Source: Escherichia phage IME11. From it: a DNA stretch of 64,000 bases. The position numbers and the translations under genes are program-made. Positions 58,087 to 64,000 of this stretch are shown here, piece by piece. Positions within the stretch are counted from its first letter, which is position 1, and every line of letters begins with the position of its first letter. The notes under the pieces are model-generated. The model saw only the letters and a program-made list of their open reading frames with translations. It made no database searches and was not told the origin of the DNA. The stretch lies in the sequence record NC_019423.1; one strand, 5' to 3'.

Positions 58087-58139
58087 CGCTTATTCTCCTA
58101 AATGTGATTAATAACCAAAAGCTGCGGAGCAGCTATTAC

Positions 58140-61082: not shown

Positions 61083-61268
61083 TTACTCCTTATGGAGTTT
61101 ACGGATTTGTTTACGGGTAGGTTTAGTTACAAAGAAGTGGTCATAGCAACGACCATTTTCATCTTTTACAGATACCTGCCAACGAGCATTCAATGTCATC
61201 TTACTGCCCCAAGGCTGTAATGTAACAATCAACTTCTGTGAGTTATAACGGTTACATACTGTACGCAT
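61083..61268 (-). CDS. small basic protein, paralog of 61922..62128
   Basis: C-terminal FFVTKPTRKQIRKLHKE shares KPT(R/K)KQIRKL with the 68-aa ORF at 61922..62128. Confidence 0.5.
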   Translation of the reverse strand: MRTVCNRYNSQKLIVTLQPWGSKMTLNARWQVSVKDENGRCYDHFFVTKPTRKQIRKLHKE

Positions 61269-61373
61269 AATGGTTACTCCTTCATCTAATATAAATCTAT
61301 ATCTATTGAGTTACTGTTTCAGTACCCTTCGTCTAAAGATACTCAAAAAGTAGAAATAGCTTATCGTCTAGTT

Positions 61374-61402
61374 AAAAATAAAAGACTCCCCGAAGGGAGT
61401 CC
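61374..61402 (-). terminator. rho-independent terminator with CUUCGG-type loop
   Basis: GACTCCC-TTCG-GGGAGTC hairpin followed on the minus strand by TTTTATTTTTAAC. Confidence 0.6.
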
Positions 61403-61411
61403 AGTGGTTGA

Positions 61412-61795
61412 TTAGAAAGTCAGTTTACGAGCATATTTATTCTCGTCTGCTGGGATGTCAGCAGCCTCTGCTTTCACTCGACGAAGTTGAACTTGCAGGT
61501 TAATGATACCTTCTTCACCTGGTTCCAGGTTCTGAGCATATTCAATTAACTGTTCCAGCAAGTCGTTCTGTGCACAACGCATAGCACGGAAGTCAGCATT
61601 GCTGCTATTAGTAGGCAGTGGTTCCTGAGTATCCAGTGGAATACCAGTGGGCAAAGAGATGAACTTCTCTTCTTCAGAGCCTTCATTAGCTACATAACCA
61701 ATGTTTAACCAGAACTGTGCCTTAGGCTTAGCAGCTTTAGATTCAGTAGAAGCAGCAGCGTTAGATTGACCGAAAGTGAATTTTTGAATAGACAT
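61412..61795 (-). CDS. hypothetical early protein (127 aa)
   Basis: ORF track 61412..61888; Met at 61795 preceded by GGAGAG RBS. Confidence 0.5.
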
Positions 61796-61902
61796 TTTGT
61801 ACTCTCCAGATTTATGTGATTTACGGGTGAACTCGTCGGTGAGAACACCCAAACAAAAGGATAAAAGTTCAATGATTAGTGGATGCATTTACATCATCCA
61901 TA

Positions 61903-61917
61903 AGACGCGGAGCGTCT
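61903..61917 (-). promoter_or_regulatory. candidate virion-RNAP (N4-type) early promoter hairpin
   Basis: Template (+) strand AGACGC-GGA-GCGTCT: 6-bp stem, 3-nt GGA loop, upstream of 61412..61795; one of three near-identical hairpins. Confidence 0.45.
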
Positions 61918-61921
61918 AGTT

Positions 61922-62128
61922 TTAGATTGCTTCTTTACGAAACTCTCTACGCAATTTACGGATTTGTTTCTTGGTAGGCTTAGCAGGGAATGAATGACAA
62001 GCAACATAGTGCTGTCTCTCTGTTACGTTAGTAATCTCTGAGAACCAAAGATTCCACTGAGCATCCATCTTACCTAACAATCCACCATTGTTACTCTTGT
62101 TTGCAAACAGGGAAGTTTGAATACGCAT
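61922..62128 (-). CDS. small basic protein, paralog of 61083..61268
   Basis: C-terminal FPAKPTKKQIRKLRREFRKEAI; GGAG RBS. Confidence 0.5.
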   Translation of the reverse strand: MRIQTSLFANKSNNGGLLGKMDAQWNLWFSEITNVTERQHYVACHSFPAKPTKKQIRKLRREFRKEAI

Positions 62129-62161: not shown

Positions 62162-62176
62162 AGATGTGGAGCATCT
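62162..62176 (-). promoter_or_regulatory. candidate virion-RNAP (N4-type) early promoter hairpin
   Basis: Template (+) strand AGATGT-GGA-GCATCT: 5-bp stem plus T.G, GGA loop; 34 nt upstream of the ATG of 61922..62128. Confidence 0.45.
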
Positions 62177-62182
62177 TGGTTT

Positions 62183-62383
62183 TTAAGGAATGTAAGAAAA
62201 CCAGGTTAGCAGTTCAGCTTTAGCTTTCTGATACTTACTGTCTACATTTTCATCTGAGATATCTATGTCTGATTCTCCATAATGATGGAGGTCAGACTGA
62301 TATTGTTCTTGCTGACGAACGGCTTCTTCAAAGCGTTCTAAAGCTTCTTGTGGAGATTCAGATTTGCAATCTGTTAGAGACAT
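62183..62383 (-). CDS. small acidic protein (66 aa)
   Basis: ORF; Glu/Asp-rich. Confidence 0.45.
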   Translation of the reverse strand: MSLTDCKSESPQEALERFEEAVRQQEQYQSDLHHYGESDIDISDENVDSKYQKAKAELLTWFSYIP

Positions 62384-62385
62384 AC

Positions 62386-62568
62386 TTATTCCTTAGTTAG
62401 TTCAACTATAAAGTTATCTAGTTTCTGCCTAGCTATTTCACACGATTCTACTATTGATTCATAGTCATCAGGGTCTGCTGAACCAGCCCAACTATCTGCA
62501 ATTGCTGATTCTGCGTAGTTACTAATTAGCTTTTTAAGCTTCTCTGCTTGCTTAGGATTAAGGGACAT
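62386..62568 (-). CDS. hypothetical protein (60 aa)
   Basis: ORF with AGGAGAAG RBS. Confidence 0.45.
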   Translation of the reverse strand: MSLNPKQAEKLKKLISNYAESAIADSWAGSADPDDYESIVESCEIARQKLDNFIVELTKE

Positions 62569-63022: not shown

Positions 63023-63037
63023 ACATGCGGAGCATGT
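63023..63037 (-). promoter_or_regulatory. candidate virion-RNAP (N4-type) early promoter hairpin
   Basis: Template (+) strand ACATGC-GGA-GCATGT: 6-bp stem, GGA loop; about 50 nt upstream of the ATG of 62657..62980. Confidence 0.45.
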
Positions 63038-63062: not shown

Positions 63063-63181
63063 GTGGCTACACCGTCAACATACCGGGGGGGCTAGTTGAG
63101 TGTAAGGGTGTAGCCCCAGCCACACCACTGTAGCCATACATAGCTATCATCATTTTGGTATGCAAAAATACCATAGCTATC
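63063..63181. repeat. cluster of inverted and direct repeats in the 230-bp early intergenic region
   Basis: Inverted repeat GGCTACACC (63065-63073) / GGTGTAGCC (63107-63115); direct repeat CATAGCTATC at 63139-63148 and 63172-63181 flanking a TGGTAT/ATACCA hairpin; partial direct repeat GTGTAAGG(G)TG at 63036 and 63099. Confidence 0.5.
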
Positions 63182-63213
63182 CTACTTATAAGCAGTTAAA
63201 TAGGAGGAAGCTT

Positions 63214-63534
63214 TCAGGTGATTATGCGTGCTATACCAGGGTAATAGTCCGGATGGTTAGGATTACCACTACTATTCCTTACGGTAGCATCTTTGATAAA
63301 TACATGGGCATAATCACCGTATGGTATGAATACTGACTCACCATTTTGCAGGATAACTATCTCTGCATTACTGTTAGTAAGTAGCTTATGTCCCTGTGCA
63401 AAGTCTGCTAACTCTCCTGGCTCCATTATTAGTGTAGAAGTTCCATGGGTCATAATGTGGATGATTGCTTTTTCTGGTACAGAGGAATAATGCAGTAAGT
63501 CCGTACCTTTCATTCCTAATAGTTTAACGTTCAT
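63214..63534 (-). CDS. hypothetical early protein (106 aa), possibly cupin-like beta-barrel
   Basis: ORF; beta-rich sequence with His residues (HIMTHG, YAHVF); fold guess only. Confidence 0.4.
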   Translation of the reverse strand: MNVKLLGMKGTDLLHYSSVPEKAIIHIMTHGTSTLIMEPGELADFAQGHKLLTNSNAEIVILQNGESVFIPYGDYAHVFIKDATVRNSSGNPNHPDYYPGIARIIT

Positions 63535-63838
63535 GCTTCAGTACCTGTTTAAGAAGACTATCCATGTAATAGCAGTATGCCTCGGAGTTATCATCGTTGA
63601 TTGGTAATCCAATGAACCCGAAGGTGTATATACAGAAGTGATTAAGTTCATGAACCAAGGTGATAGGGTCACTATCTTGTGCATAGATAAGTACCGAACC
63701 ATCAGATAGCAGTGTAGTTACACCTTTGCTTTGTTCCTCTGGTTCACAGCCCTTAGCTTTCTTGTACTTCTTAATGAAGGTATCCCAGTCGAATACTACC
63801 TCTAACTGTACCGGATAGGGGGATGTGTTTAGTTTCAT
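63524..63838 (-). CDS. small HExxH-motif protein (104 aa)
   Basis: ORF containing LVHELNHF; ATG overlaps the upstream gene stop (ATGA). Confidence 0.45.
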   Translation of the reverse strand: MKLNTSPYPVQLEVVFDWDTFIKKYKKAKGCEPEEQSKGVTTLLSDGSVLIYAQDSDPITLVHELNHFCIYTFGFIGLPINDDNSEAYCYYMDSLLKQVLKHER

Positions 63839-64000
63839 AGAGATACCTTTGGATAAATGGTGCGTACTCTTTTAAAATCTTTATTAGGTCTACCATCTAT
63901 AGTAAGCCCAACAAACCCTTCTTCTATCCTTGGTTCAAAGAACAAGAATGCAGATTCACCAGCAGGTATCTTTATGGATTCCCCTGGATTAAGGATGGTT
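63835..64000 (-). CDS. hypothetical protein, C-terminal part (gene start lies beyond the window end)
   Basis: Minus-strand frame open from the window edge to a TGA at 63835 that overlaps the next ATG; not in the ORF track. Confidence 0.4.
   Translation of the reverse strand, partial: TILNPGESIKIPAGESAFLFFEPRIEEGFVGLTIDGRPNKDFKRVRTIYPKVSL

Follow-up and report, generated by a model that had tools for sequence, protein, structure and literature searches.

Two small basic early proteins of Escherichia phage IME11 as probable divergent members of the TifA family

Two small basic proteins of Escherichia phage IME11 (sequence record NC_019423.1) end in the same KPT(R/K)KQIRKL tail, which raises the question of where the two genes come from and what their products do for the phage. 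They lie in a stretch of 64,000 nucleotides that was analysed as a whole (hereafter the window). In the initial annotation they were described as duplicated, paralogous early proteins with differing N-terminal regions, whose conserved tail may bind a common host target or nucleic acid. As set out below, both are almost certainly divergent members of the TifA family (Pfam DUF7279), which was founded by gene 61.4 (tifA) of phage T4. The list of open reading frames (ORFs) places the two genes where they had first been reported:

61083-61268, minus strand: ORF A, 61 amino acids, assigned to the TifA family (DUF7279), A type (NRYN...RWQVS...YDHFF-KPTRKQIRKL).
61922-62128, minus strand: ORF B, 68 amino acids, assigned to the TifA family (DUF7279), B type (T-x-LF...W-LWF-E...FP-KPTKKQIRKLRREFRK), an accessory gene.

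The C-terminal end of ORF A reads ...DHFFVTKPTRKQIRKLHKE and that of ORF B ...HSFPAKPTKKQIRKLRREFRKEAI. When the two proteins are compared by BLASTP the tail alone aligns, with 12 of 18 residues identical and 14 of 18 positive (E=7e-7). Their Smith-Waterman score is 64; in 20,000 shuffles of ORF B the mean was 22.5 +/- 4.4, about 9.5 standard deviations lower, and the maximum 55, so that no shuffle reached the observed score and the shared tail is borne out. Over the N-terminal ~46 residues the pairwise score is 20, which 52% of the shuffles equalled and which is not significant. The statement that the N-terminal regions differ is thus correct at the pairwise level, but it does not extend to profiles, which carry the homology beyond the tail and further upstream into an invariant Trp strand and an aromatic strand. 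In a six-frame translation the motif K-P-T-[RK]-K-Q was found nowhere else in the window, and a family hidden Markov model searched against its 1,242 stop-to-stop ORFs detected no third copy. Both genes are preceded by Shine-Dalgarno sequences (AAGGAG at 61282-61277 for ORF A and GGAG at 62140-62137 for ORF B); in relatives their frame and length are kept and substitutions are enriched at third codon positions, so that both appear to be translated, as far as can be read from the DNA.

The assignment to the TifA family is carried by profile comparisons. On Pfam model PF23945 (DUF7279), which has a curated gathering threshold of 24.5 bits, ORF A scores 39.0 bits over residues 24-61 and ORF B 74.0 bits over residues 20-67, both above the threshold; the same model gives 72.7 bits for T4 gp61.4 and 70.8 bits for JS98 gp61.4. 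Both proteins cross-match the same six PHROGs, with E=1e-32 for ORF A against phrog_7840 and E=3e-23 for ORF B against phrog_2375. Using hhalign, the A clade was matched to the B clade with 98.0% probability (E=2e-13), and this, together with the common Pfam family and PHROGs, upholds the description of the two as paralogous. Against a reference set of seven published homologues (T4/RB69/JS98/VR7/EcS1/005/PM2), the B clade reached 98.5% (E=3e-15, 50 columns) and the A clade 94.6% (E=7e-8, 40 columns), so that the homology to characterised TifA goes past the basic motif (40-54 residues by profile comparison). The path to TifA led from a tblastn search of phage genomes with ORF B to JS98 gene 61.4, and from there through the annotation of T4 61.4. 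A family alignment of 39 diverse sequences shows no variation at W25, P51, T52 and Q55 (ORF B numbering) and hardly any at K50 and R57. Word-seeded homologue searches with single sequences returned close orthologues only. An exhaustive profile search gave 38 clusters at E<=1e-3; it did not reach the T4-like TifAs, and 38 clusters is therefore an undercount of the family.

Neither protein had a match in PADLOC or NCBIfam, and a comparison of the family profile with all PDB sequences yielded nothing significant, the best hit being ribosomal protein bL35 (E=0.48). The bL35 match (chains 6o8w_5, 7p7r_7 and 7nhk_7) spans the F-x-x-K-TKKQ-R-LRK stretch of the tails. This resemblance is most likely compositional, though curious, since TifA reportedly co-purifies ToxN with 16S rRNA. 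A reading of the two proteins as nucleases was rejected, as their size leaves no room for a DDE/RNase H active site and a conserved acidic triad is absent.

In T4, tifA is an early gene that is co-operonic with dmd, and its protein, not its RNA, neutralises ToxN, the endoribonuclease of the type III toxin-antitoxin system toxIN, with which it co-precipitates (PMC9391042). The conserved feature of the family is a Pro-Thr pair that caps a helix, followed by basic residues (Guegler et al., NAR 2023, PMC10853763). TifA binds RNA, and RNA binding, association with ToxN and toxin rescue are all lost upon P53A/T54A or K55A/R56A/R59A substitution, the cap and the basic residues having been mutated in the T4 and RB69 proteins; ToxN was proposed to be trapped on abundant cellular RNA, e.g. 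16S rRNA (PMC10853763). In the alignment, P53, T54, K55, R56 and R59 of TifA are in register with P51, T52, K53, K54 and R57 of ORF B and with P50, T51, R52, K53 and R56 of ORF A, respectively, and the two tails can be delimited as follows:

61086-61124, minus strand: K49-E61 of ORF A, Pro-Thr helix cap (P50, T51) and basic helix (R52, K53, R56), from the alignment with T4/RB69 TifA and the structural model.
61925-61981, minus strand: K50-I68 of ORF B, Pro-Thr helix cap (P51, T52) and basic helix (K53, K54, R57, K58, R60, R61, R64, K65), from the alignment and the structural model.

Judged by its residues, the KPT(R/K)KQIRKL tail corresponds to the start of the RNA-binding helix of TifA, with the Pro-Thr cap and the basic residues that follow it, and by analogy both proteins would, with good probability, bind RNA through it. 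The AlphaFold models, which are confident for both proteins, start the terminal helix directly past the Pro-Thr pair, at residue 52 in ORF A and at residue 53 in ORF B. For ORF B (predicted local distance difference test, pLDDT, 90.1) the model consists of strands 2-10, 13-16, 19-21, 24-32 and 42-47 and helix 53-67, while ORF A (pLDDT 93.6) is predicted to be beta-alpha-beta-beta-alpha, with strands 2-8, 30-35 and 41-46 and helices 11-20 and 52-60. In BFVD, which holds predicted viral structures, the best matches are family members, among them the TifA homologue of EcS1 that was used in PMC10853763 and proteins of Possum, ST32 and VR25, the top four having template modelling scores of 0.74-0.79; comparison with solved structures gave generic matches only.

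The two genes are distributed very differently. ORF A is an orthologue of G7C gp2.2 (67% identity, at the same place after gp2), and gp2.2 is not different in kind. Its clade comprises 56 phage records, all Schitoviridae-sized, as well as at least 77 metagenomic orthologue clusters, all on ~70 kb contigs. ORF A itself is the short form of 61 amino acids, without the C-terminal CxxC...HxxC extension that many of its orthologues of 98-100 amino acids carry (...VRKHY..KCYECGKRI...DDLNYAH.DC.., a zinc-ribbon-like CxxC-17-HxxC; P0013, P0021, P0062; L009 1866-2099; L011 2120-2455). ORF B is an orthologue of SP5M_0003 (95.6% identity), and identities above 90% are confined to five records representing three phages (SP5M, PE007, U1G); its orthologues occur in forms of 68 and 85 amino acids (P0001). 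The next relatives of ORF B are found at 50-54% identity in phages of Shigella, Citrobacter and E. coli with genomes of ~88-90 kb (such as Shigella phage Sf17, Citrobacter phage Moogle and phiSUSP1), followed by proteins at 43-46% in ~52 kb phages and by gp61.4 of JS98-like T-even phages (~170 kb) at 40%; the identity between ORF A and ORF B is about 35%. The best match of ORF A is phage 24-32N (100%), which lacks ORF B, while the best match of ORF B is SP5M (95.6%), whose ORF A is only 85% identical. This discordance indicates that the early region is a mosaic in which the two genes went through separate histories. ORF A is missing from U1G, and ORF B from most relatives. Both types occur together in about ten schitovirus records, mostly arranged as B-gp2-A; in Salmonella phage As2 the B type and the A type are adjacent and slightly overlap (L012 1118-1333, 1323-1529), and the T4-like phage JS98 likewise carries a pair, 61.4 and orf29 (L003 2986-3225, 4016-4237). 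The possession of two TifA-type genes is thus a recurrent state; in the present phage ORF A would be the core copy of the lineage and ORF B a swappable immediate-early accessory cassette.

Two other accounts of the resemblance have to be set against this family history. The tail match might be due to chance or to the composition of Lys/Arg-rich ends, or one or both ORFs might be untranslated: the proteins are very short and basic, their pairwise similarity beyond the tail is not significant, and there are weak compositional matches to the ribosomal proteins L41 and L35. The shuffling test, the scores of both proteins above the curated Pfam threshold and profile-profile E-values of 1e-8 to 1e-15 refute a chance similarity, and the maintained length and frame, the excess of third-position substitutions, the Shine-Dalgarno sequences and the AlphaFold models speak for translated genes, which leaves this account with a negligible probability. 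The other possibility, a recent duplication within this genome followed by rapid divergence of the N-terminal halves, would be in keeping with the distance between the genes, which lie within 1 kb of each other, and with the adjacent A and B types of As2. The DNA encoding KPT-KQIRK (61095-61124 and 61952-61981) uses the same codon at 7 of the 9 identical residues, where 3.9 would be expected from the codon usage of the window; this excess is mild, could reflect selection or past recombination, and is suggestive at most of gene conversion between the two tails. However, ORF B is closer to homologues in unrelated myoviruses (Sf17, Moogle and phiSUSP1) and in JS98 than to ORF A. Each of the two clades, A and B, holds together over many phages, the best matches of ORF A and ORF B are discordant, and the predicted N-terminal topologies differ. 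A recent duplication is therefore very improbable, and the designation of the two genes as duplicated is misleading; from their sequences ORF A and ORF B appear to be old paralogues or separate acquisitions.

How the two genes are expressed can be predicted from their setting. Where it aligns, the region has 87-96% identity to the genomes of Gamaleyavirus, a group of G7C-like, N4-like coliphages in the Schitoviridae. On the minus strand, the N4 gp1 homologue (62980-62657) is followed by an ORF of the DUF7438 family, an acidic ORF, ORF B, the N4 gp2 homologue, a terminator and ORF A, beyond which further small early ORFs and then the RNAPII subunit genes are located. The genome of N4 contains neither ORF A nor ORF B. 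The two features that separate the TifA-family genes are:

61412-61888, minus strand: N4 gp2 homologue (single-stranded DNA (ssDNA)-binding cofactor of RNAPII) between the two TifA-family genes, from phrog_4099 (E=2e-51) and synteny with N4 gp2.
61383-61402, minus strand: intrinsic terminator after the gp2 homologue, 115 nt upstream of ORF A, from a terminator scan; conserved in N4, SP5M, Mimir124 and G7C.

Promoters of the N4 virion RNA polymerase (vRNAP) are template-strand hairpins with a stem of 5-7 bp, a 3-nt loop, a purine at -11, G at -10, G at -8 and C at +1 (PMC4496689). Both strands of the 64 kb were scanned for stems of at least 5 bp with a GGA or GAA loop, G at -8 and C at +1. Exactly four sites were obtained, all with a GGA loop, with the plus strand as template and thus for minus-strand transcription; the same scan of the first 7 kb of N4 gave exactly three, before gp1, gp2 and gp15. 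The four sites of the window are:

63023-63037, minus strand: vRNAP hairpin before gp1 (hairpin scan).
62162-62176, minus strand: additional N4-type vRNAP hairpin before ORF B, template 5'-AGATGT GGA GCATCT-3' (hairpin scan).
61903-61917, minus strand: P2-type vRNAP hairpin before the gp2 homologue, predicted +1 at 61899 (hairpin scan and alignment with N4 P2).
58120-58134, minus strand: vRNAP hairpin before the RNAPII subunit gene (hairpin scan).

The hairpin of ORF B has a 6-bp stem with one G.T pair next to the GGA loop, G at -8 and C at +1, as in N4-type early promoters. Its predicted +1 (62158) is located 30 nt upstream of the start codon, and the 30 nt of the leader repeat that of P1/gp1 in shortened form (AACTATTGGAG). 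With such a promoter of its own, ORF B should be among the proteins synthesised in the first minutes after infection. The designation of both proteins as early therefore agrees with their location in an N4-type early region, ORF B having its own predicted vRNAP promoter and ORF A being early by position. No evidence was obtained for sigma-70 promoters before ORF A or ORF B, the scan having found fewer sites than in shuffled sequence. A hairpin before the B-type gene is also present in SP5M, U1G and Jgk1, and in G7C and St11Ph5 hairpins in the same gp1-gp2 interval precede unrelated small genes (gp1.1, gp1.2), while the same scan found no extra hairpin between gp1 and gp2 in Mimir124, 24-32N or N4. 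With zero, one or two such hairpins per relative, before varying small genes, the gp1-gp2 interval seems to be a slot for accessory genes that is equipped with promoters.

Taken together, we cautiously favour a reading by analogy with T4, in which ORF A and ORF B would be divergent TifA-family early proteins that act in counter-defence through an RNA-binding helix and with different targets. The KPT(R/K)KQIRKL helix would bind RNA without strong sequence preference, as in the T4 and RB69 proteins, while the variable N-terminal sheet and loop would recognise a host protein, which in T4 is ToxN. The toxin would then be trapped on bulk RNA, e.g. 16S rRNA, as part of a ribonucleoprotein in which it is inactive, so that phage transcripts are protected. 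Since ORF A and ORF B differ in the part of TifA that is thought to confer specificity, the two paralogues are most likely directed at different toxin variants or different RNases and do not merely double the dose. Of the suggestion that the tail may bind a common host target or nucleic acid, the second part is therefore supported, through homology to the RNA-binding and ToxN-associating TifA, whereas a common target is less likely than different specificities. A role of the two proteins against type III toxins in particular is possible by analogy, though somewhat doubtful.

Several observations weigh against this reading. N4-type phages have been reported not to shut off host transcription, which is the known trigger of toxIN. 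Within the 64 kb the scan recognised no vRNAP hairpin for ORF A, which is located between P2 and P3 and past the terminator; transcripts from P2 would need to read through this terminator to reach it, so that its early timing follows from its position only. The helix of residues 11-20 in the ORF A model takes the place of the second beta hairpin, where ORF B has a hairpin, so that the N-terminal halves are unlike each other not only in sequence but also in their predicted structure. The loop residue F41 matters for the potency of T4 TifA, and according to the authors conservation of the specificity loop does not extend to the wider family (PMC10853763); in ORF B the aligned residue is Q39, and ORF A has a deletion of six residues in this loop. 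This mismatch bears on target specificity and not on family membership. In the published neutralisation panel only the proteins of T2, T4, T6 and RB69 were active (Guegler et al. 2023, PMC10853763), while six more distant TifA homologues, those of JS98 and the schitovirus CB4 among them, were inactive against all six ToxN homologues and against TenpN (PMC10853763). JS98 is the closest T4-like relative of ORF B, and with this outcome anti-ToxN activity cannot be transferred to ORF A or ORF B.

The failure of the distant homologues in this panel is also what could be expected if TifA-fold nucleic-acid binders served phage gene expression, either by protecting or organising early transcripts or by taking part with gp2 and RNAPII in the switch from early to middle transcription. 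TifA also binds ssDNA and double-stranded DNA in vitro (PMC10853763), ORF A and ORF B flank the gp2 homologue, and the order B-gp2-A recurs in several relatives. Furthermore, ORF A is a conserved core gene of its lineage (56 records), which is atypical of an accessory anti-defence gene, and the additional CxxC...HxxC module of many of its orthologues suggests nucleic-acid binding. Yet N4 runs the same transcription programme without either gene, U1G manages without ORF A and most relatives without ORF B, and the family is scattered over unrelated phage groups with different transcription strategies, which better fits a host-directed accessory function. We therefore consider a role in gene expression unlikely and retain the counter-defence reading. 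An extension of the latter, which we regard as improbable, would treat the slot upstream of P2/gp2 as a plug-in site, where each gene arrives with its own vRNAP hairpin and a truncated gp1 leader and where TifA paralogues neutralise RNase defences that were not part of the panel. ORF B and the remodelled ORF A clade, with its N-terminal helix and optional zinc-ribbon tail, might then hit other type III toxins or a different nuclease, and the TifA paralogues of the Schitoviridae would form a natural specificity series for the mechanism of trapping a nuclease on bulk RNA.

Some features of the neighbourhood deserve mention. The PHROG match of the gp2 homologue begins at residue 32, and an internal ATG at 61795 is preceded by GGAGAG, while the ATG of the long form (61888) lies 11 nt past the predicted transcription start at 61899 and lacks a Shine-Dalgarno sequence; the true start is probably ATG 61795, giving a form of 127 amino acids. 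In relatives this gp2-type ssDNA-binding cofactor is sometimes labelled 'RNA polymerase RNAP1 subunit A' or even 'integrase'. The stretch that separates the gp2 terminator from the gene after it contains a box, TTT(A/C)GACGAAG(G/A)G followed by ACT-AA...TAA (61325-61337 of the window, minus strand; L001 1146-1158), which is invariant in N4, SP5M, Mimir124 and G7C and occurs twice in G7C (L005 ~1810 and ~2345), before an inserted HNH gene and before gp2.2. Under the scan criteria this box does not count as a vRNAP hairpin; it may act as a promoter or in processing. In the interval from gp1 to ORF B (62183-62568, minus strand), a DUF7438 protein of 60 amino acids and an Asp/Glu-rich ORF of 66 amino acids are separated by TAAGTATG, and the hairpin scan found no vRNAP hairpin directly before them; in SP5M, U1G and St11Ph5 this site is annotated as a single coding sequence of ~110-120 amino acids. 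The match to the linear genomes of relatives stops at their record position 1, which corresponds to ~63123 of the window, so that the early region runs leftwards from there on the minus strand. The window thus appears to cross the physical left end of the genome, with 63124-64000 being the right end, probably as a result of a circularised or permuted assembly in which the terminal repeat was collapsed.

Family, motif and mechanism have already been published and one schitovirus homologue has been assayed, so that the tail motif itself is not new. Among the full-text papers searched there are none for 'DUF7279' and none that mentions TifA together with 'N4-like', and in the records examined the Gamaleyavirus gp2.2/phrog_7840 and phrog_2375 proteins are labelled only as hypothetical proteins. 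What is modestly new is the apparent nature of the G7C gp2.2 clade as a structurally remodelled relative of TifA, the presence of a second paralogue in a promoter-equipped accessory slot and the C-terminal CxxC...HxxC extension on many A-type orthologues. For annotation, two 'hypothetical' early genes and the G7C gp2.2/phrog_7840 and phrog_2375 groups gain a testable label as putative TifA-family RNA-binding counter-defence proteins. G7C-like phages are frequent candidates for phage therapy of E. coli and Klebsiella, and the one or two TifA-type genes that they carry bear on the prediction of host range against strains with toxIN-like abortive infection. The occurrence of the same RNA-binding helix on different N-terminal modules could help to map target choice in the family, and for engineering the promoter-equipped slot gives an example of how a gene acquired by an N4-like phage can be expressed as early as the first seconds of infection.

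Among known systems, TifA (T4 gp61.4, and its counterparts in T2, T6 and RB69) belongs to the same Pfam family and size class (61-85 amino acids) as ORF A and ORF B. It has in common with them the invariant Trp strand, the aromatic strand, the [KR]-P-T-[KR]-[KR]-Q-I-R helix start and the basic helix, as well as the predicted sheet with a C-terminal helix, early expression and a setting among small accessory genes. By contrast, the overall identity of ORF B to TifA is only 23-25%, ORF A and ORF B have no adjacent dmd and belong to the Schitoviridae with promoters of the vRNAP hairpin type, and their anti-ToxN activity is putative. A TifA-family protein of an N4-like phage is known from Pectobacterium phage vB_PatP_CB4 (Cbunavirus, Schitoviridae). 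It matches ORF B by BLASTP over 58 residues with 28% identity (E=7e-8) and has the same K-P-T helix cap, but is larger (93 amino acids), with a longer N-terminus, a C-terminal extension and the motif KPTSKQVRQ; since it neutralised no toxin of the panel, family membership is no guarantee of anti-ToxN activity. Dmd (T4 gp61.5), the inhibitor of the RNase toxins RnlA and LsoA, shows no detectable sequence relationship to ORF A or ORF B. In function it is analogous, being likewise a small early phage protein that neutralises the RNase of a toxin-antitoxin system, and its gene in T4 is co-operonic with tifA. Dmd is, however, described as inhibiting RnlA directly, whereas for TifA the proposal is that ToxN becomes trapped on cellular RNA.

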